Part shown: in pieces, positions 33,190 to 43,897 of the stretch
Position numbering within the stretch: position 1 is the stretch's first letter
Layout: each line of letters starts with the position of its first letter
From: Kangiella sp.
GTDB taxonomy: Bacteria; Pseudomonadota; Gammaproteobacteria; Enterobacterales; Kangiellaceae
Reading direction: 5' to 3'
DNA: 64,000 nucleotides
NCBI GenBank assembly: GCA_036568325.1
Contig: DATCST010000061.1
Span: forward strand, 6,835-70,834
Made by a program: the position numbers and the translations under genes
The notes under the pieces: generated by a model
The model's input: only the letters and a program-made list of their open reading frames with translations
What the model was told of the DNA's origin: nothing
Databases searched by the model: none

Positions 33190-34905
33190 ATGCGTAGTAG
33201 CCAATACTTACTTTCCACACAAAGAGAAGATCCAAGCGACGCCGAGCTGATTAGCCATAAGTTAATGCTTAGAGCAGGCATGATCCGCAAGATTGCCTCA
33301 GGTATGTATACCTGGCTGCCCACTGGCTTGCGTGTTTTGCGCAAAGTAGAAGCTATTGTTCGAGAAGAAATGAACAAGGCTGGCGCAGTTGAGATATTAA
33401 TGCCGAGCGTGCAACCCTCTGAGCTATGGGAAGAGTCAGGCCGTTGGGACCAGTTTGGCCCAGAATTACTGCGTTTTAAAGATCGTCATGGCCGTGACTT
33501 CTGCTTGGGCCCAACCCACGAAGAAATCATTACTGCGGTCATTCGCGACGAGATCAACAGCTACAAACAGCTTCCAGCGAGTTTTTATCAAATTCAAACC
33601 AAGTTCCGCGATGAAGTTCGCCCTCGTTTCGGTGTTATGCGCGCTCGTGAGTTCTTGATGAAAGATGCCTACTCTTTCCACGTTGATGAAGAGTCATTAT
33701 CGGAAACCTATCAGGTAATGCACCAGGCCTACTGCAATATTTTCGAGCGTATTGGTTTAGATTATCGCCCAGTGCTGGCGGATACCGGTGCTATCGGTGG
33801 TAGTAACTCGCATGAGTTCCATGTGCTAGCAGAATCAGGCGAAGATGCGATTGCTTTCAGTAGCGAAGGTGATTACGCCGCCAATATAGAAAAGGCACAA
33901 AGTCTCGCACCACAAAAAGAAGCCGCAGCTCCGAACCAGGGCTTAACTAAGGTCGAAACACCAAACACCAAGTCCATTAAACAGGTGTGTGAGTTACTAA
34001 AAGTAACACCACAGCAAACGGTGAAAACTTTGTTGGTGGTTGGTGAAAACGAAGAAAATCCAGTGGTAGCTTTATGCTTACGTGGCGACCATGAGCTTAA
34101 TGAAATTAAAGCTGGCAAACATCCGTTAGTGGCTGAGCCAGTACAATTAATTTCTGACGAACAGATTCAATCAGTTGCTGGTTGCGATGCAGGTTCTGTT
34201 GGCCCATGTGGCTTAGATATCCCTGTCATTGTCGATCGTGATGCCGCAGTACTCAGTGACTTTGTCTGTGGCGCCAATGACACAGGCTTCCACTTCGCAG
34301 GCGCAAACTGGCAACGTGATGCGCAACTATCCGAAGTGATGGACATTCGTAATGTGGTTGCTGGCGACCCAAGTCCGGATGGTAAAGGTATTCTGGAAAT
34401 CAAACGTGGTATCGAAGTAGGTCATATTTTCCAGCTTGGTACTAAATACTCTGAAGCAATGAACTGCAAGGTACTGGATCAAAACGGCAAAGCTGTGACC
34501 TTGGCGATGGGTTGTTACGGTGTAGGCGTCTCGCGTATCGTTGCCGCTGCCATTGAGCAAAATTATGATGACAACGGTATCCTCTGGCCAGCAGCCATTG
34601 CACCGTTCCAGGTTGCCATTATCCCTATGAATATGCATCGCTCAGAACAAGTTCAACAAGTCGCTGAGAAGTTATATGACGATTTACAACAACTGGGCAT
34701 TGATGTGATATTTGATGATCGCAAAGAGCGTCCCGGCGTCATGTTCGCAGATATGGAACTGATCGGTGTTCCTCATCGCTTAGTGGTCAGCGAACGTGGT
34801 TTGGAAAACGGTACTATTGAATATAAGAACCGCCAAAACACCGCTAAGGATGACGTCAGCGTAGAAAATGTTGTAAATTATATCCAAGAACTGTTACCAC
34901 AATAA
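33190..34905 (+). CDS. proS: Prolyl-tRNA synthetase
   Basis: [36 protein letters not shown] and MGCYGVG motifs; INS editing domain present. Confidence 0.99.
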
Positions 34906-34909
34906 CACT

Positions 34910-35503
34910 ATGGCGTTGAGTAGAGTGACACTAGGTCGAATCTTAGCAATTGTTGGTCTTATAGCTGTGACGGGGTTCACTCAAACCAGTCAAGCTCAAG
35001 AGCGACCCGATCAAGCTTTCTATGATGAGCTTAAGGCTCTGATGGAAGCTGATAACCATTTCGTTGATCGCTATGATGCTGAGGTCTGGATGAAAGACAT
35101 GTCAGGCCGTCTCAAGCGTCGTGCTCCGCATATTCCCCAAGATGAACGCTTAAAGATTCTGACACTGGTCCATCGCTACTCAAATGCATCAGGGGTTGAC
35201 CCGCAACTAGTTCTCGCCATCATGGAGGTGGAAAGTAACTTTGATCGCTACGCCCTTTCGGTTGCCAATGCGCGAGGACTAATGCAAATCATGCCTTTTT
35301 GGAAGGATGAAATTGGTCATCAAGAGGACTCTCTTTTTGATATGGAAACCAACGTACGCTATGGCTGCTACATTCTCAAACTCTATCTGGATATGGAAAA
35401 AGGCAACCTGACTTACGCCCTAGGGCGCTACAATGGTTCTCGTGGAAGAGCTAAATATCCTAATAAAGTTTACGCTGCCTTGCGCAACCGTTGGGCGCTG
35501 TAA
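34910..35503 (+). CDS. Lytic transglycosylase (SLT domain)
   Basis: IMEVESNF (catalytic Glu), GLMQIMP, ALGRYNG; N-terminal signal or anchor. Confidence 0.92.
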   Translation: MALSRVTLGRILAIVGLIAVTGFTQTSQAQERPDQAFYDELKALMEADNHFVDRYDAEVWMKDMSGRLKRRAPHIPQDERLKILTLVHRYSNASGVDPQLVLAIMEVESNFDRYALSVANARGLMQIMPFWKDEIGHQEDSLFDMETNVRYGCYILKLYLDMEKGNLTYALGRYNGSRGRAKYPNKVYAALRNRWAL

Positions 35504-35508
35504 AACTA

Positions 35509-36735
35509 ATGACTGAACGCCCTTCAATTCCAGGACTGATCCTTAGTGGTGGCGGTGCACGTGCCGCTTACCAAGTTGGTGTATTAAAAGCTGTTTCAGA
35601 AATTCTGGAGCATCCTGAAAAATCTCCCTTTAGAATTGTCTCCGGCACATCAGCCGGTGCTATTAATTCCTGTGCGGTCGCTGAACACAGCCACCGTTTT
35701 GCCGAAGGGCTCAGACGCCTGGAACATCTCTGGGCCAACCTGACACCGGATCAGATTTACCACACCAAGTTACGCCAGTTGTCAGGCAATGCTTTCCGCT
35801 GGATTTGGAATATTTTACGCCCAGCCAGCCAACTCAAAAAACCATTGGCGCTTCTTGATAACTCTCCTCTTCGCGAATTGTTGACCACAGCCATTCGCTT
35901 TGATGATATCCGCGAGAACATCAAGAATGGCTTCTTGGATGCAACCTGTATCACTGCATACAACTACAATACAGGCGATTCGGTCAGCTTCTTTCAGGGC
36001 ATACCCGATTTGGTCGAATGGCAACGCTTTAGACGTTTTGGTAAAGCAGAAGACTTGACCTTGTCACACCTGATGGGCACAACTGCCATTCCCATGATTT
36101 TCCCATCGGAGCCTATTAATGATATTCACTTCGGTGACGGCTCAATGCGTTTCTTGACGCCGCTTAGCCCCACCCTGCGATTAGGCGCGAATAAATTGTT
36201 TGTGGTCACGGTAGAGCCTTTGCGTGGCGAAGTCGATCATGAAATCAAAATTCCGTCGATTGGTGATATCAGCGGCCACTTGCTGGACAGTATTTTCATC
36301 GACAGTTTAGAGAGCGATATCGAGCGCATGATGCGAGTTAATGAATTGCTGGCACACATTCCTGAGCGCGACATTGTGCGCGAACAGCTCACGCTGAAGC
36401 AGGTTGATACCTTCATTATTTCACCGAGCATTGATCCGATGGAGCTTGCCGGTCAATATTTTAAAAACCTTCCGCGCGGCCTACGTTTCTTTTTCAAACG
36501 CATTGGTGTTGATGAAGAAAATGGTGAGAGTATTTTGAGCTACCTGCTTTTTGATAAGTCTTTCACCAACCACTTAATTGAGCTTGGCTACCAAGATGCG
36601 ATAAAGCAGGAACATAATATTTTAGACTTCTTTAACTACCAGCAAACTCAGCAAGAAGAAGAATCTGAACAGGAAGATGAATCTGACTATAAGGAATCAT
36701 CTCAACAAGAAGAGCTATCTCAACAAGACCTGTAG
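35509..36735 (+). CDS. Patatin-like phospholipase
   Basis: LSGGGARAAYQVG, GTSAG nucleophile elbow, GDGS; acidic C-terminal tail. Confidence 0.92.
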   Translation: MTERPSIPGLILSGGGARAAYQVGVLKAVSEILEHPEKSPFRIVSGTSAGAINSCAVAEHSHRFAEGLRRLEHLWANLTPDQIYHTKLRQLSGNAFRWIWNILRPASQLKKPLALLDNSPLRELLTTAIRFDDIRENIKNGFLDATCITAYNYNTGDSVSFFQGIPDLVEWQRFRRFGKAEDLTLSHLMGTTAIPMIFPSEPINDIHFGDGSMRFLTPLSPTLRLGANKLFVVTVEPLRGEVDHEIKIPSIGDISGHLLDSIFIDSLESDIERMMRVNELLAHIPERDIVREQLTLKQVDTFIISPSIDPMELAGQYFKNLPRGLRFFFKRIGVDEENGESILSYLLFDKSFTNHLIELGYQDAIKQEHNILDFFNYQQTQQEEESEQEDESDYKESSQQEELSQQDL

Positions 36736-36767: not shown

Positions 36768-37823
36768 ATGAACAGCTTTGATGATTTGTTTGCGCATTAC
36801 CCACCGGATGTTGCACCTTTTATGCATCAAATGTTGGCCGATTATCAAGCAACCAAACCCTATAAAGGATTCAAGATTGTTCATAATGTCCCGCTCACTC
36901 AAACCACTCTGCTCAAAATTGCCTGTCTCAAAACAGCCGGTGCCAATATTGTCGTGACCAATCCCAGTTTCATGAACGAAGATCGGGATGCGATACAAGT
37001 TTTAACCAATGAACAGGTGCCTTATCTACCACTGGATTCAGTCAAAGGCGAATTCGACTTTCTCCTCGATTGTGGTGCTGAGCTGGTAGATAAATGCTAT
37101 GCACACAAAGGCATCGTTGAATTGACCCGTACTGGCGCCATGCGCTATCAGCGACACAAAGAATTTCATGTACCGATTGTGTCAGTGGATGATACTCGCT
37201 TGAAATGTCTAGAAACCTGCCTCGGCACTGGCGAAGGTGTTTACCGCGCCATTAGGCAAATCGCCAATGTGGATTTAACCAATAAAAACATTTTGATTTT
37301 TGGTTTTGGTAAAGTCGGTATTGGTATCGCTTACTACTTCTCTAAAATCACAGCCAACGTCATTATTGCCGAAGCTGATAGCTCACGTTTACAACTTATC
37401 GAGCAGCGTGGCTATCAAAGTGTTGATGCCAAACAAGCTCAATTGATAGAACATGCCGCTGAAGCCAGCGACCTGATTATCACCGCCACAGGACTGAAAG
37501 ACATCATCAGTGATAACTATCACTCGGGCGCGTTTAAAGATAAGTTGCTAGCCAATGCTGGCGCTGAAGATGAGTTTGGTTATGCGTTTGATGCAACTGA
37601 AGTTCTCGCCGATAAAAAACCGGTTAACTTTATCCTCAAAGAACCGACCTTGATGGAATTTCTCGATCCGATTTTCTACGCTCATAACATCGCCATTGAT
37701 GATGCGCTGAATAATACACAGACAGGATTTAGAGCTTTGGATCAAAAAACGGATGAGGCAATTGTTAGCCAATGGGCGAAGCATCATGATTGGACGGTAG
37801 AAAAACTCAACCAGATTTTTTAA
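36768..37823 (+). CDS. Divergent S-adenosylhomocysteine hydrolase-like NAD-binding protein
   Basis: AHCY-like layout (ELTRTG, SVDDTRLK, GFGKVG, ITATG, NAG), but several catalytic positions are substituted. Confidence 0.75.
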   Translation: MNSFDDLFAHYPPDVAPFMHQMLADYQATKPYKGFKIVHNVPLTQTTLLKIACLKTAGANIVVTNPSFMNEDRDAIQVLTNEQVPYLPLDSVKGEFDFLLDCGAELVDKCYAHKGIVELTRTGAMRYQRHKEFHVPIVSVDDTRLKCLETCLGTGEGVYRAIRQIANVDLTNKNILIFGFGKVGIGIAYYFSKITANVIIAEADSSRLQLIEQRGYQSVDAKQAQLIEHAAEASDLIITATGLKDIISDNYHSGAFKDKLLANAGAEDEFGYAFDATEVLADKKPVNFILKEPTLMEFLDPIFYAHNIAIDDALNNTQTGFRALDQKTDEAIVSQWAKHHDWTVEKLNQIF

Positions 37824-37847: not shown

Positions 37848-39119
37848 CTAATCAGGAAAATGAACAGCTCGAAATTCATTCTCAAGCTCTAACAGTAAAA
37901 CCTTATCACGTTGCCAGGGTGGGATGCCCTGCTCCTGAAAATAGTTCTTCAACGAGACACTTTTCCCACCCTGTTCAAATCGAATGCGCTCACCACCTTG
38001 GCGACCTTTAACGGTTACGTTTCTTCCAACCAGATTTGGGTAGTTCTGTTGTAACCATTCCAGCGAAATTAAAACTTGACCGTTATGCTCTAAATCATTT
38101 TTTGCAGACCATTCTAGCTCAAGACTGGAATAATCATTAACCGCCTCAGTGACCCAATAGAGCGCATCACGATAACGTCTGATTGAGCCGCAGCCCATCT
38201 CAATTACAGGGTTAGCATCTTCTTTAGCATCCAGCATTTGCGTCTTAACTTGCTGCAATACCGCCTGACTGGGCATATCTGCACCACAGGCTTCTAACCA
38301 GTAACGTAACAGGTTTCTGACTCGCTGCGGGCTTAAGTGCCTGACTCGGGCTAACATTAATGAGTCATGCTGCACCTCATAACAGTTTTCGAAGTCAATA
38401 GCCGCCAGTTCATCCAACAGCTGCTGATTTTCAGCCTGAATCTGGCTGGCGCTAGCAATGACTTTAGAAGCCTGTGGCCACTTTTGTTCAATCAATGGCA
38501 TCACTTGATGGCGCACAAAATTACGTCGAATATCGGTGTCTTGATTGGTCGGGTCTTCAATCGCTTTTAAACCATGAGAATGACAATAATCTTCTACCGC
38601 TTCTCTGGTCACTGCCAACAACGGCCGTGCCAGATAGCCCTTTGCAAACTGAGAAACTTTTGGCATTGACGCCAAGCCTTTACTGCCTGCACCACGAAAC
38701 AACTGCAGCAGGAAGGTCTCAGCCTGATCATTTAAGTGCTGACCGGTTACTAAACAGGTATGAGGATTCTGTATACATCCAGATAATGCCTGATAACGGG
38801 CTTTACGGGCGGCACCTTCAAGACTGGCTGAATCTTTATCGATCTCAACTTGGACGGACTGAAAAGGAATGTCTAAGGACTCACAAAAATGTTGGTTTTG
38901 TTTTGCCCAGTCAGCAGATGCCATTTGCAGTTGATGGTCAATATACACGGCAGACAAGGAGTAATTGGAATTAGAGGTTCTAGCTGAATGTAGCGCATGC
39001 AACAAGCTCAGCGAATCAACGCCACCACTTAATGCAACAACAATGGATTTAACAGATTTAGAAATGCAAAGAGCCAGAAACTCATCAATGGCTTGAGAAA
39101 CTGGCTCTGATTTTGTCAT
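37848..39119 (-). CDS. tilS: tRNA(Ile)-lysidine synthetase
   Basis: ALSGGVDS, AARKARY, GQHLNDQAET, RPLL, RRNFVR motifs. Confidence 0.96.
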   Translation of the reverse strand: MTKSEPVSQAIDEFLALCISKSVKSIVVALSGGVDSLSLLHALHSARTSNSNYSLSAVYIDHQLQMASADWAKQNQHFCESLDIPFQSVQVEIDKDSASLEGAARKARYQALSGCIQNPHTCLVTGQHLNDQAETFLLQLFRGAGSKGLASMPKVSQFAKGYLARPLLAVTREAVEDYCHSHGLKAIEDPTNQDTDIRRNFVRHQVMPLIEQKWPQASKVIASASQIQAENQQLLDELAAIDFENCYEVQHDSLMLARVRHLSPQRVRNLLRYWLEACGADMPSQAVLQQVKTQMLDAKEDANPVIEMGCGSIRRYRDALYWVTEAVNDYSSLELEWSAKNDLEHNGQVLISLEWLQQNYPNLVGRNVTVKGRQGGERIRFEQGGKSVSLKNYFQEQGIPPWQRDKVLLLELENEFRAVHFPD

Positions 39120-40343: not shown

Positions 40344-41729
40344 ATGCTCAACTCAGCGACCTTAAAAACCTATCAGCAAGCACGCATGGCACGTGATCCG
40401 CGCTTTGACGGCACTTTTTTTGTCGCGGTGAAAACAACAGGCATCTATTGTCGCCCCGTCTGTCCAGCGCCAGCACCCAAAGAGCAGAATGTTGCTTATT
40501 ACCCCAGTTCCGTGCAGGCGCAAGAAGCAGGCTTTCGCCCCTGCTTGCGCTGCCGCCCGGAAACAGCCCCGCTCTCTGCGGCCTGGCTTGGTAATCAGGC
40601 TGTGCTGAAAAAAGCAGTAGCACGTATTCAGGCAGGCGCTTTAAGTCAAACCTCATTGCAGGACTTTAGCGAATCCATGGGCATTAGCGACCGCTATCTG
40701 CGCAAACTGTTTCAGCAGTATCTTGGCGTCTCGCCGATAACCTATGCCAACCATTTGCGCCTGATGTTCGCTAAACAGCTACTGCATCAAACCCAGCTAC
40801 CTATTACTGATATCGCATTTATCGCAGGCTTCAACAGCGTACGTCGCTTTAATGACAGCTTTAAAGCCACCATGAAACTAAGCCCCAGTAATTTACGAAA
40901 AAAACTAAACAGCCAACAAAGTCCGCAAGAGTCGCAAGCCATTCAATTAAAGCTGCATTACCGTCCACCGTACAACTGGTCAATGATGCAAGAGTTTTTA
41001 AAACAGCGCGAGTTATCGGCAATCGAAACAGTATCGGACCACAGCTACAGCCGTACTTTTAGTCTGGACGGTGTTAATGGCTACTTTACTGCAGAGTTTG
41101 ATTCAACCAGCTCATCATTCAACGTCACCATTGAACTGAGTGATATGAGCAAACTATTGGAGGTCACGCACCACATTCGTCGCGTGCTGGATCTGAACAG
41201 TGATCTGGAAGTGATCGAAAAAACACTGGGACAAGATAAAAATTTACAACCTCTCCTGAAATCTGGGCTGCGACTACCCGCCACCTGGAACACCTTCGAA
41301 GCTGGAGTTAAAGCTATTCTTGGTCAACAGGTTTCGGTTAAAGCTGCTTACACCCACACCGCTAGCGTCATTGAGCAACTGGGCAGTGATTACAACGAAC
41401 AGTACAAACTATTCCCAACGGCACAGCAAATAGTCGATGGCGATTTAAGCTTTCTCAAGATGCCCAATAGCCGTAAACAAACACTACACAACTTTGCCCA
41501 ATGGTCTCTCGACACTAACGGTGAGGACTTATCATCAATACTCACTATAAAAGGCATCGGTCCCTGGACTTATGAATACATCAAATTGCGCAGCGGCTTT
41601 GATAGCGACGCTTTCCCCGAAAAAGATCTCGGCGTGACCAAAGCCATGGAAAAACACAATCTAACCAACACCGAACAATGGCACCCCTGGCGCAGCTACG
41701 CCACCCTGCAACTATGGCACAGCCTATAA
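40344..41729 (+). CDS. alkA: Ada Zn-domain/AraC-AlkA fusion (DNA-3-methyladenine glycosylase II)
   Basis: TTGIYCRPVC and FRPCLRCRP Zn cysteines, AraC HTH, AILGQQVS, HhH GIGPWT, catalytic FPEKD. Confidence 0.88.
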   Translation: MLNSATLKTYQQARMARDPRFDGTFFVAVKTTGIYCRPVCPAPAPKEQNVAYYPSSVQAQEAGFRPCLRCRPETAPLSAAWLGNQAVLKKAVARIQAGALSQTSLQDFSESMGISDRYLRKLFQQYLGVSPITYANHLRLMFAKQLLHQTQLPITDIAFIAGFNSVRRFNDSFKATMKLSPSNLRKKLNSQQSPQESQAIQLKLHYRPPYNWSMMQEFLKQRELSAIETVSDHSYSRTFSLDGVNGYFTAEFDSTSSSFNVTIELSDMSKLLEVTHHIRRVLDLNSDLEVIEKTLGQDKNLQPLLKSGLRLPATWNTFEAGVKAILGQQVSVKAAYTHTASVIEQLGSDYNEQYKLFPTAQQIVDGDLSFLKMPNSRKQTLHNFAQWSLDTNGEDLSSILTIKGIGPWTYEYIKLRSGFDSDAFPEKDLGVTKAMEKHNLTNTEQWHPWRSYATLQLWHSL

Positions 41730-41751
41730 AAGATAAGAGAAGAATTATTGT

Positions 41752-42234
41752 ATGAATACGAAACTTTATTATCAAAAAACACAATGCCCATTCGGCACAG
41801 TGCATATTTATGCCGACGACCAACACCTCAAAGCATTGTTATTTAAGCCATGGAACAAAATGCCAGCGCAAAATCTTCTAAACAAAAGCAATCCGGTTAT
41901 CGAACAAACCCAACGCCAACTCGACGAATATTTCAAAGGTCAAAGATCTGAGTTCGATCTACCCATCAAAGCAGACGGCACAGACTTCCAACAAACCGTC
42001 TGGCAAACCCTATGCAAAATTCCTTTTGGTGAAACCTGGAACTACGGCCAACTCGCCCAAGCAATCGGAAATAAGAATGCCAGCCGCGCCGTCGGCGCCG
42101 CCAACGGCAAAAACCCCATCTCCATCATCGTGCCCTGCCACCGCGTAATTGGAGCAAACGGCACCCTAACGGGCTACGCAGGAGGATTAACCATCAAAGA
42201 ATGGTTACTTAAACATGAAGGGATAATTAAATAA
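41752..42234 (+). CDS. ogt: O6-methylguanine-DNA methyltransferase
   Basis: RAVGAANGKNP and active-site PCHRV. Confidence 0.95.
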   Translation: MNTKLYYQKTQCPFGTVHIYADDQHLKALLFKPWNKMPAQNLLNKSNPVIEQTQRQLDEYFKGQRSEFDLPIKADGTDFQQTVWQTLCKIPFGETWNYGQLAQAIGNKNASRAVGAANGKNPISIIVPCHRVIGANGTLTGYAGGLTIKEWLLKHEGIIK

Positions 42235-42337: not shown

Positions 42338-43897
42338 ATGCTTAATAACGCTCAAAATCAAATTTTCCATATCTTTTTGCCCTTACTTGTAAAGCTACTC
42401 GCATTCGTAGCAGGTTACACTTTATTAAACCTCTTGTTTTTTCATACTATTGATATTTTCGATATTAATGATGATATCCCTAATTTTTATATTCCATTAT
42501 TCACAGTTCCTATTTTTACATTCATCGTCACTAAACAACCATTTCTAGTCTTTGAATATGATGATAAAGGAGGTGACAAAGCCTTCGCTTCAAGGTTTAT
42601 TATCAGCGTTCCACTATTAATAACCACCTGCCTTACACAATATGTTGCCTCTGAGAAGATAGCTAAAATTTCAAACTTTCAAAACGTAGATGAACTCAGA
42701 AATAGTGAACAGGTTAAATATTACACATTTGAAGACTTCTATATCGATAAAGAATATCCCGTTGTAAACACAAACTTCAAGGTCACAGGACAGTACAATA
42801 GCAACTTCCAGATGGACATATTTGTAGCTCTCCCTTTGACAAAATCTGGCGAAGATTCATTCGGTGACAATCCTTACTGGTATGGTATTAAGTACAGCAA
42901 TACGGTTGATAATGAACTAAGCTCGGAAGACAAGAGTCGTTTATTTCGTAAATTTTACACAGAGTCTTTAGCAAAGTTTAATAAGCAAAACCTATATTAT
43001 GTTACTTACTTTGAAAGGTTAAAAGACTATAGCGAAAAAGATCTCTTTATCGAAAAGCATCCATTCTTTAATCAGGATGAAAAAGAAAAGTCCATAGTAT
43101 TCGTCCCAAAGTCAGATAGTTTTGAAGATAGGCTTTCAGGCCTCGGAACTTGGTGGTTCATATCCCTTTCACTAACCATTGTCATTGTATTTCTAACTAC
43201 TTTTATTCCAAACATGAACACATCACGATGGAGAGCCTATTACCATGGTAAAAAGCTGCATGATGAAAGTAATAGCAGGCTTATAGATATCTTGCTACCA
43301 AGAAAAGACTTATTCGTAACGCCTCTATTAGTCATCCTAAATTTAGTGGTTTTCATCATAATGGCCGTTTCTAGCCTCTCTCTAATGAACTTCGAAGGGC
43401 AGCTTTTAATTAACTGGGGAGCCAATTTCTCACCCAATATTGAGTCTGGCGAATGGTGGAGACTCATCACCAGTATTTTCCTTCATGGAGGAGCTTTTCA
43501 CCTTCTATTTAACCTTTACGCTCTCTACATGATTGGAATAATTCTCGAACCTGAAATAAAATCAATACGTTATATAATCTTATATTTACTATTTGGAATT
43601 GTTGCCAGCCTTGTCAGTTTGTCTTGGAATCATGACGCTGTCAGTGTTGGAGCATCGGGAGCAATCTTCGGAATGTTTGGGCTATATTTGGCATTGTTAT
43701 TCACTAACTCAATTTCCAAAGAGTTAAGAGCCTTTGCATCTTGGGTGACTGGAATTGCTGCGATTAGTTTATTATTAGGAGTAATGAATAGCAGCATTGA
43801 CAATGGCGCCCACATCGGTGGTTTGATAACAGGATTCATCCTAGGTTTTTTAATAAGTCCTTTTATCAAAAATCATAGCCAAGATATTCAGAAATAA
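42338..43897 (+). CDS. Rhomboid intramembrane serine protease with a long N-terminal membrane and extracytoplasmic region
   Basis: EWWRLITSIFLH, VGASGAIFG (Ser), NGAHIGG (His); visibly AT-rich. Confidence 0.92.
   Translation: MLNNAQNQIFHIFLPLLVKLLAFVAGYTLLNLLFFHTIDIFDINDDIPNFYIPLFTVPIFTFIVTKQPFLVFEYDDKGGDKAFASRFIISVPLLITTCLTQYVASEKIAKISNFQNVDELRNSEQVKYYTFEDFYIDKEYPVVNTNFKVTGQYNSNFQMDIFVALPLTKSGEDSFGDNPYWYGIKYSNTVDNELSSEDKSRLFRKFYTESLAKFNKQNLYYVTYFERLKDYSEKDLFIEKHPFFNQDEKEKSIVFVPKSDSFEDRLSGLGTWWFISLSLTIVIVFLTTFIPNMNTSRWRAYYHGKKLHDESNSRLIDILLPRKDLFVTPLLVILNLVVFIIMAVSSLSLMNFEGQLLINWGANFSPNIESGEWWRLITSIFLHGGAFHLLFNLYALYMIGIILEPEIKSIRYIILYLLFGIVASLVSLSWNHDAVSVGASGAIFGMFGLYLALLFTNSISKELRAFASWVTGIAAISLLLGVMNSSIDNGAHIGGLITGFILGFLISPFIKNHSQDIQK

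Follow-up and report, generated by a model that had tools for sequence, protein, structure and literature searches.

What does a homolog of S-adenosylhomocysteine hydrolase (SAHH; AhcY, EC 3.13.2.1) do when seven residues of its active site have been exchanged for others? The question is raised by a gene in a 64,000-nucleotide stretch of the genome of a Kangiella species (assembly GCA_036568325.1, contig DATCST010000061.1, positions 6,835 to 70,834 of the forward strand), called the window below. The gene, here termed X, lies at 36768..37823 on the plus strand and encodes a 351-aa SAHH-like protein (P0001). Its open reading frame (ORF) runs from an ATG start through 351 uninterrupted codons to a TAA stop, and the opposite strand carries stops throughout; ORF call and translation agree on the length of 351 aa given in an initial annotation of this DNA, which had been made from the letters alone. 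Base composition gives no sign of a foreign origin, as the GC content of X is 43.5% compared with 43.8% for the window. The by-products of S-adenosylmethionine (SAM), which include S-adenosylhomocysteine (SAH) and 5′-methylthioadenosine (MTA) as well as 5′-deoxyadenosine, inhibit the enzymes that make them and therefore have to be removed, and to our knowledge few routes for their removal are known. Here we put forward, as a tentative reading that we hold at somewhat less than even confidence, that X may be an NAD-dependent enzyme acting on MTA or on 5′-methylthioinosine (MTI).

X Is a Distant Homolog of SAHH

Profile searches place X next to SAHH but well outside the range of the known hydrolases. 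X scores 40.9 bits against the NAD domain of SAHH (Pfam PF00670, AdoHcyase_NAD), above the cut-off of 27, and 13.5 bits against the catalytic domain (PF05221, AdoHcyase), below the cut-off of 25. On the NCBIfam ahcY models it reaches 97.9 bits (NF004005, cut-off 275) and 81.8 bits (TIGR00936, cut-off 497.6). A phmmer search of the PDB at E ≤ 1 matched 52 sequences, the best 47 of which are SAHH or SAHH-like chains headed by 5tov_A (E 1.1e-17), while the other five comprise a weak SAHH chain, a leucine dehydrogenase, and three chains of dipicolinate synthase A. When an alignment of 38 sequences of the X family (A1) was compared by hhalign with an alignment of the AhcY of the same genome and two further SAHHs (A2), the two profiles matched over 320 columns with a probability of 99.86% and an E value of 3.5e-31. 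Judged by these comparisons, X is a distant but certain homolog of SAHH; the initial annotation had also called it an SAH-hydrolase homolog, and the Pfam NAD domain, the phmmer matches, and the profile alignment all bear this out.

The predicted structure is consistent with this assignment. The AlphaFold2 model of X, computed with A1, has a pLDDT of 95.4 and a pTM of 0.90, and each of the 40 top rows listed in a Foldseek search is a chain of the SAHH family (E 2e-19 to 3e-16). VIA-align superimposes the model on 3x2e_A with Z 34.6 and on human 4yvf_A with Z 34.5, a root-mean-square deviation (rmsd) of 2.8, and 337 aligned residues; across SAHH chains, 336 to 338 residues align at 23 to 25% identity. 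In the model, X thus has the complete two-domain SAHH fold, with a substrate domain and an NAD domain. Residues 1 to 345 of the model span residues 15 to 407 of the 432 residues of human SAHH, and X ends at residue 351. Because the alignment ends at human residue 407, the last ~25 residues of SAHH, its C-terminal tail, are absent from X. In SAHH this tail covers the NAD of the neighboring subunit.

Comparison with characterized proteins of this fold brings out what sets X apart. With SAHH itself (Thermotoga maritima 3x2e and 5tov, human 4yvf and 1li4) X shares the fold, the NAD motifs of the Rossmann domain, and three residues of the 3′-OH oxidation site (Lys, Thr, and the first Glu), but it is ~80 to 110 residues shorter, has no C-terminal tail, and carries replacements at seven active-site residues. 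The archaeal S-inosyl-L-homocysteine hydrolase (7r3a, 7r37) is a close match to X (E 8.8e-14, Z 33.0) and, as an enzyme that uses the SAHH fold on a deaminated SAM by-product, it offers a parallel to an X that would act after a deaminase. In contrast to the shortened X, however, it is of the full-length SAHH type, and it presumably keeps the SAHH catalytic set, which X does not. The AHCYL1/IRBIT and AHCYL2 proteins (3mtg, 3gvp) have the SAHH fold as well (Z 32.3 for 3gvp) and are not SAH hydrolases, acting instead through binding. These proteins are eukaryotic, full length, and extended at the N terminus, whereas X is none of these and has invariant residues of its own; moreover, X is no closer to AHCYL proteins (E 2.9e-4 and 1.2e-3) than to true SAHH (1e-17).

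An Apparently Rebuilt Active Site

To locate the differences we use the profile–profile alignment, with which the phmmer alignment of X to 5tov agrees up to residue 265, and conservation among 147 domains of representatives clustered at 50% identity; all motifs lie on the plus strand. The human AHCY residue numbers are those that we take to be standard, and they are consistent with the phmmer ranges, in which residues 113 to 266 of X correspond to 150 to 301 of 1li4_A. HNVPLT (residues 39 to 44, 36882..36899) stands where AhcY has GSLHMT and puts Pro42 at the position of the catalytic His; this residue is Pro in 115 and His in 22 of the 147 representatives. In LDCGA (residues 100 to 104, 37065..37079), which corresponds to LDDGG, Asp101 is kept and conserved in 147/147 representatives, and the second Asp has become Cys102 (132/147). 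VELTRTG (residues 117 to 123, 37116..37136) corresponds to EETTTG and retains Glu118 (147/147) and Thr120 (146/147), with Leu119 for the second Glu. LKCLET (residues 145 to 150, 37200..37217) contains Lys146, the counterpart of the catalytic Lys in the SAHH motif TKSKFDN, followed after a one-residue deletion by Glu149-Thr150 in place of Asp-Asn; Lys146 and Glu149 are each found in all 147. NAGAEDE (residues 263 to 269, 37554..37574), which aligns with NIGHFD, has Ala266 for His next to family-conserved Asp268 (135/147) and Glu269 (144/147), and its Asn263 is present in 142/147. Finally, VNFILKEPT (residues 286 to 294, 37623..37649) keeps Asn287 (144/147), as in the SAHH sequence VNL, and has Thr294 (143/147) for the His of GHPSF.

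The SAHH residues His55, Asp131, Glu156, Asp190, Asn191, His301, and His353 are therefore represented in X by Pro42, Cys102, Leu119, Glu149, Thr150, Ala266, and Thr294, respectively. The residues of the 3′-OH oxidation step are kept, with Lys186 equivalent to Lys146, Glu155 to Glu118, and Thr157 to Thr120, and so are Asp101, Asn287, Asp268, and the Rossmann motif. The latter, GFGKVGIG (residues 179 to 186, 37302..37325), contains the dinucleotide signature GxGxxG as GFGKVG at residues 179 to 184, and Gly179, Gly181, and Gly186 are each found in 147/147 representatives. The strand that follows ends in Glu202, a position occupied by Asp or Glu in 138/147, and an acidic residue here favors NAD over NADP. 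Given the retained motifs and this acidic residue, we infer that X binds NAD. The initial annotation had recognized the changes of GCLHMT to HNVPLT, LDDGG to LDCGA, SEETTTG to VELTRTG, and NIGHFD to NAGAED, and all four are reproduced against the AhcY of the same genome; the Lys186, Thr, and GxGxxG that it listed as kept appear in the profile alignment as Lys146, Thr120, and GFGKVG. Three further replacements emerge here, namely those of Asp190 by Glu149, Asn191 by Thr150, and His353 by Thr294.

The replacing residues are conserved far beyond Kangiella. In a second set of 78 sequences from several phyla (77 loci plus P0001), D97, D101, E118, T120, D141, K146, E149, N263, D268, N287, T294, and H306 are identical in 78/78, and C102 in 77/78. 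X itself carries all family residues (D97, D101-C102, E118, T120, D141, K146, E149, N263, D268-E269, N287-F288, T294, D300, and H306). To describe the catalytic set as lost, as had been done initially, is thus misleading, for the residues that took its place are nearly invariant (for example, Glu149 in 147/147 and Cys102 in 132/147 representatives). Such near-invariance indicates that the positions are under strong selection for something else, and by this measure the active site of X has been rebuilt rather than left to decay.

A Family Distinct from the AhcY of the Same Genome

A word-seeded search recovered 91 proteins related to X, with 81 to 99% identity in Kangiella and 34 to 52% in Kordiimonas, Legionella, Legionellales, and the BD1-7 clade, which the databases name "NAD-binding protein," "Rossmann-fold protein," or "adenosylhomocysteinase." When one genome per species was scanned, 472 stretches proved to encode an X relative; the best 80 of these loci, on which the counts of gene context below are based, include Kangiella, many Legionella, Aquimarina, Tenacibaculum, Chryseobacterium, Pelagibius, Ruegeria, Bacteriovoracaceae, and Elusimicrobiota. 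A HMMER search of 1.84 billion representatives (50%-identity clusters) returned 2927 matches at E ≤ 1e-3, 1039 at ≤ 1e-10, and 311 at ≤ 1e-30, and the weaker ones surely include true SAHH. X is thus a stand-alone member of an uncharacterized family of ~350-residue SAHH-derived proteins that is under purifying selection on its new site. Our literature searches, which did not extend to subscription journals, author manuscripts, or preprint supplements, so that prior work is possible, found no paper on the X family. They likewise returned none on an SAHH paralog in Legionella or on pen-cluster SAHH homologs, none on AdoHcyase_NAD with a histidine kinase or on an SAHH sensor domain, and, for an MTA enzyme related to X, only an unrelated paper.

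The assembly is 99.98% complete and contains a canonical ahcY (615.5 bits on TIGR00936, cut-off 497.6), which lies immediately downstream of metK (638.5 bits) on a contig other than that of X. In all likelihood X is not the cell's SAH hydrolase. That it is no true AhcY, which had been proposed from the sequence along with a search for a canonical ahcY elsewhere, is supported by scores far under the cut-offs, the seven replaced sites, the missing tail, and the presence of the canonical gene beside metK. The wider suggestion, that X might be an NAD-dependent enzyme or a ligand sensor for another nucleoside, fits all of the findings reported here, with the sensor half gaining support from the kinase fusions described below; for a sugar as the alternative substrate no specific support turned up.

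A Possible Role in MTA Disposal in Kangiella

Profile searches of the Kangiella genome that carries the window found no PNP_UDP_1 (PF01048) protein, no MtnN, no MTA phosphorylase (MTAP), and no MTI phosphorylase, whereas a PF01048 protein was found in 14/14 control genomes. The genome does encode a TRZ/ATZ hydrolase, which scores 651.6 bits on NF006549 (cut-off 540) and 332.8 bits on the 5′-deoxyadenosine deaminase model. Its gene stands beside ubiG and a gene for a MupP-like phosphatase (G000:C14:13476-16211; L083:1429-4164), an arrangement that we take to be the one around the MTA deaminase gene of Pseudomonas aeruginosa. These observations suggest that MTA is deaminated in this organism, which would leave the next step without a known enzyme. 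For P. aeruginosa, a review (PMC6302742) outlines a route in which MTA is converted to methylthioinosine, which then undergoes phosphorolysis.

Of the genomes of 24 Kangiella species, 18 carry X; the 6 that do not are 99 to 100% complete. Seventeen of the 18 X-bearing genomes are without any PF01048 protein (no MtnN, MTAP, DeoD-type PNP, or Udp), and to have no PNP/MTN-family protein at all is unusual for a free-living gammaproteobacterium. Of the six X-free genomes, in contrast, four have a full-length PF01048 protein (81 to 86 bits), one has a fragment of 76 aa, and one has none; a genome of the sister genus, which has no X, encodes a PF01048 protein as well. The PF01048 protein of G064, the only one checked in this way, is closest to the Arabidopsis MTA nucleosidase 2h8g (E 3.3e-47), and those of G064, G066, and G070 score 39 to 52 bits on the MtnN model, under its cut-off. 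From its complementary distribution, this plant-type MTA nucleosidase (MTN) may be a functional counterpart of X, doing the same job with different means: MTN has the unrelated PNP_UDP_1 fold, uses no NAD, and cleaves the glycosidic bond, whereas X has the SAHH fold.

Fusions and Gene Neighborhoods Across the Family

Gene contexts, determined from de novo ORF calls and blastp clusters over the best 80 loci, are clade-specific on a quick family tree. X is also found as a domain of larger proteins. The 150 best representatives include 17 long proteins, in 12 of which an N-terminal X is followed by PAS modules (P0111, P0118, P0127, P0131, P0132, P0137, P0139, P0147, P0173, P0178, P0182, and P0221); 10 of these continue into HisKA/HATPase kinase domains, some with REC and Hpt, and 2 have PAS only. 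All 12 PAS-linked forms retain every invariant residue, and 11 of them have a His at the position of SAHH His55, where most stand-alone members have Pro. To judge from these kinase fusions, the module serves as a signal input in at least some lineages. In P0205, an adenosine deaminase domain (PF00962, 203.6 bits) is fused to X, although PF00962 was not found in the Kangiella genome itself. The remaining long forms comprise a Dabb-X-OTU fusion (P0126; OTU is a cysteine protease domain, 26.3 bits against a cut-off of 23.3), an X preceded by a weak DUF218 match (P0094; 19.9 bits, under the cut-off), an X with a 400-aa tail of no assigned family (P0093), and P0120, from a Myxococcota metagenome-assembled genome (MAG), which joins the partner domains c2 and DUF3293 (see next section) and X in one chain.

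Separate genes repeat some of these associations. In 4/80 loci X is directly upstream of a gene for a PAS hybrid histidine kinase, and in three of the four (L048:7085-7756, L053, and L077) a small acyltransferase gene directly precedes X. The acyltransferase is similar to N-acyl amino acid synthases of the FeeM type (atlas score 0.96) and, weakly, to OlsB (27.9 bits), so that synthase, X, and hybrid kinase look like a triad of signal synthase, X, and sensor. At the locus of the Legionella anisa group, an ornithine/diaminopimelate (DAP)-decarboxylase-like gene, a 1480-aa protein, X, an MFS transporter, and a GDSL lipase are found together. The ~1480-aa protein between the decarboxylase-like gene and X has no Pfam family and recurs in seven loci (L032:3358-7806 and relatives). 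Other contexts are scattered, with UPF0261, AraC-EamA, or GT4-flippase-DUF1330, the GT4 and flippase genes being those of Kordiimonas.

The c2 and DUF3293 Partners

In 14/80 loci X is adjoined on the same strand by c2, a 285-aa gene of no Pfam family. These loci belong to Flavobacteriia, Pelagibius, Ruegeria, two contigs of one BD1-7 isolate, and one Stackebrandtia MAG. A separate DUF3293 gene is present in 9 of the 14, and c2 and DUF3293 are fused in three (L056, L057, and L070). The c2-DUF3293 cassette, whether two genes or one, always stands beside X (L022:9104-10374, L056:9024-10316, and 12 other loci). One of the 14 loci and of the three fusions, L070, which is also row 2 of the alignment A3 used below, comes from a genome flagged as unpublished (G044).

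A model of the natural c2-DUF3293 fusion of the BD1-7 isolate, computed with the 22 rows of A3, has a pLDDT of 87.8 and a pTM of 0.67. For the DUF3293 part, a Foldseek search of the PDB gave no match at E ≤ 0.001, and its top four rows are phage SAM lyases (8bb1_E, 6zm9, 6znb, and 7ock_K; E 0.019 to 0.068). In the VIA search the T3 SAM lyase 7ock_L ranks first (Z 8.3, rmsd 2.8, 98 residues, model residues 324 to 430), where, according to the tool, a Z of ~8 can reflect a common arrangement; Svi3-3 (6zm9_A) ranks second with Z 5.7, tied with an unrelated chain, and a SAM-AMP lyase ranks 19th with Z 4.5. Among BFVD entries, a phage DUF3293 protein matches with TMt 0.89, and proteins named as phage SAM hydrolases match at E 1.7e-3 and 4.6e-3. 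In the model, then, the DUF3293 part folds like the phage T3/Svi3-3 SAM lyases (7ock, 8bb1, 6zm9); it is this partner, and not X, that resembles them. No sequence link accompanies the likeness, since the DUF3293 profile found only chance-level integrase matches in the PDB (E 0.34) and the single sequence nothing, and the literature search found no paper on DUF3293, PF11697, or IPR021710 within the scope given above.

The c2 part matches domains of phage "large polyvalent proteins" in BFVD (E 9e-20 to 1e-12, 18 to 38% identity) as well as phrog_3170, to which no function is assigned there, and contains a conserved HDxFGHA motif. By sequence, neither c2 nor another cluster, c47, has a match in the PDB; in the structural search of the PDB the list was filled by the DUF3293 part, leaving the phage polyvalent-protein domains of BFVD as the only structural matches of c2.

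Genomic Setting in the Window

X follows three genes of the same orientation, proS and an SLT lytic transglycosylase gene (33190..35503, plus strand) and a gene for a 414-aa patatin-like phospholipase (35491..36735, plus strand; PF01734, 89 bits), which ends 32 bp upstream of X. On the other side tilS (37848..39119, minus strand) and, beyond it, accA converge on X. A consensus scan around X found no convincing promoter or terminator between proS, slt, patatin, and X (8 promoter-like sites against 8.7 expected from shuffles), and the four genes are possibly cotranscribed as a single unit. The order proS-slt-patatin-X|tilS-accA is found in 12/12 Kangiellaceae loci. In both X-free Kangiella genomes examined, proS-slt-patatin|tilS-accA is intact and X alone is gone. 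The patatin and tilS alignments in these two loci end 16 and 28 bases apart, which identifies X as a clean single-gene insertion or deletion, with tilS at its downstream edge. Since it stays in place when X is missing, the patatin gene is independent of X; it is probably a neighbor and not a partner, and its candidacy as an obligate partner was rejected on these two genomes.

The patatin protein itself shows a weak likeness to CapV of CBASS systems (39.5 bits, cut-off 200) and to the phospholipase effectors of PADLOC (37 bits), and no cyclase gene lies near it. None of X, c2, DUF3293, and the triple fusion has a PADLOC match, and a role as a defense system was discarded for all of them. Farther along the window, 40344-42234 (plus strand) encodes a 461-aa fusion of an Ada zinc domain, an AraC helix-turn-helix (HTH), AlkA_N, and an HhH-GPD glycosylase, with an ogt-type methyltransferase encoded separately behind it, and 42338-43897 (plus strand) encodes a 519-aa protein whose rhomboid protease domain is confined to residues 371 to 508, the long N-terminal part being without a Pfam match at E ≤ 0.001.

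Discussion

The combination of a retained oxidation apparatus and a rebuilt 5′ side suggests how X might work. X would keep the binding of NAD and of an adenosine-type nucleoside, the latter expected from homology, from the adenosine deaminase fusion, and from the SAM-lyase-like partner, and would transiently oxidize the 3′-OH by way of Lys146. It would then carry out chemistry at C4′/C5′ other than the hydrolysis of SAH by addition of water at C5′, possibly with Cys102, at the place of SAHH Asp131, as a new base or nucleophile. The substrate would be MTA, or the MTI made from it by the MtaD-like TRZ/ATZ deaminase of the genome, and elimination of the thioether would yield methanethiol. The most economical candidate is MTA or its deaminated form, because SAM lyases produce MTA, because its small thioether leaving group needs no homocysteine channel, and because the X-bearing Kangiella are without the usual MTA enzymes. 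In Kangiella, X would thus supply the MTA disposal that X-free species obtain from MTA nucleosidase; elsewhere, the module would be wired to a SAM-lyase-like enzyme that makes MTA or would serve as the input domain of PAS-histidine kinases.

Several observations weigh against an MTA or MTI enzyme. The residues with which SAHH adds water are absent by alignment, and hence the product is not predictable, and NAD binding, ligand, and activity of X are all predictions. The kinase-fused forms keep all invariant residues, which fits a sensor equally well. The likeness of DUF3293 to SAM lyases is one of modeled structure only, with Foldseek E values of 0.019 to 0.068 and a Z of 8.3 that is in the range counted as common by the tool, and searches with PF11697 and one c2 protein found neither DUF3293 nor c2 in the Kangiella genome itself. 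The distribution is also less telling than its counts. One genome (G054), an 86%-complete MAG, has both X and a PF01048 match. In a tree of ProS alone, the six X-free species group in one clade (SH-aLRT 99) whose sister is an X-bearing species (support 92), and the complementarity within Kangiella may reflect only one or two events. Two of the X-free species also lack an intact nucleosidase (G055 has neither, and G069 has only the fragment), so loss of the nucleosidase does not make X strictly necessary. Outside Kangiella, 40/49 X-bearing genomes, among them G044, have some PF01048 protein; of 41 such genomes tested only three have MTAP and two MtnN over the cut-off, and 69/71 Legionellaceae genomes encode a 280-aa PNP-like protein with or without X. 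The idea that X replaces enzymes of the PNP/MTN family in general was therefore rejected. MtnN-like matches in Legionellaceae, at 1/17 genomes with X and 9/54 without, lie in the expected direction but are not convincing; in this sample, run for MtnN and not MTAP, matches over the cut-off number 0/17 and 6/54.

Other readings account for parts of the same evidence. X could be an NAD-dependent sugar-modifying enzyme, catalyzing oxidation, epimerization, or elimination on another nucleoside, nucleotide, or polyol, with the Kangiella pattern a coincidence. We regard this as unlikely, yet it is a serious contender: the alcohol-oxidizing core is kept, the 5′-specific residues are replaced, and the contexts are very diverse (GT4 and flippase; decarboxylase-like gene, MFS transporter, and GDSL lipase; UPF0261; EamA). 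No sugar- or polyol-specific neighbor recurs across clades, however, and the partner that resembles SAM lyases, the fusion to adenosine deaminase, and the complementarity with MTN point to adenosyl-sulfur compounds. X might instead be a noncatalytic sensor or regulator that binds NAD and a nucleoside, closes as SAHH does, and signals to a partner in the manner of AHCYL/IRBIT. The N-terminal position of X on PAS modules in 12/17 long proteins, 10 with kinase domains, its place directly upstream of kinases in 4/80 loci with a FeeM-like synthase in front in three, and the disappearance of the hydrolytic residues all speak for such a role. Nonetheless, mere binding would not call for Lys146, Thr120, Glu118, and the Rossmann glycines to be present in 146 to 147 of 147 domains, including all 12 fusions; the Kangiella X has neither an output domain nor a conserved partner, the patatin staying when X is absent; and a step in a pathway is suggested by the deaminase fusion and by operons that join X to enzyme-like partners. 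On balance a sensor seems improbable, though it too is a serious contender.

The remaining two readings are much less probable. A lipid-metabolism or defense pair of X and the adjacent patatin-like phospholipase is suggested by the placement of the latter directly upstream in 12/12 Kangiellaceae loci and in the window, with its 32-bp gap, by its slight resemblance to defense phospholipases, and by lipases and esterases near X in some Legionella; with X alone missing from otherwise intact loci in 2/2 genomes, no other clade joining X to a patatin, and X without a PADLOC match, we consider such a pair very improbable. Equally, X could still be an S-adenosyl- or S-inosyl-homocysteine hydrolase that draws its catalytic residues from shifted positions. 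It has the complete SAHH fold and keeps Asp101, Glu118, and Lys146, His39 is placed three residues ahead of the lost His, and some relatives carry the database name of the enzyme. Yet its scores are 3 to 6 times under the curated ahcY cut-offs, seven active-site columns are replaced in the hhalign alignment (E 3.5e-31), His39 is not invariant (65/78), the C-terminal tail is missing, and a canonical ahcY is present, so that a hidden hydrolase is the least probable of the readings considered here. An enzyme acting on MTA or MTI thus remains, tentatively, the account that we prefer. Whether X goes further and represents a new enzyme class, carrying out an NAD-dependent, cysteine-assisted demethylthiolation of MTA or MTI, which at the same time supplies a sensor input to histidine kinases and the processing partner of DUF3293/polyvalent-protein-domain cassettes, is a speculative extension that we think doubtful.

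Were this extended proposal true, X would provide a third route of MTA disposal beside nucleosidase and phosphorylase, and the X module, placed ahead of histidine kinases, would sense SAM-derived nucleosides in the cytoplasm. A paralog of SAHH that is widespread, with a site rebuilt and strictly conserved, would add chemistry to one of the best-studied enzymes that use NAD as a cofactor, and the label "adenosylhomocysteinase" on X relatives is corrected. The kinase fusions suggest that bacteria may monitor SAM-derived nucleosides directly, and the link to SAM-lyase-like DUF3293 would tie X to the conflict of phage and host over SAM. For Kangiella, X could explain how MTA is handled in species without a PNP/MTN-family protein.

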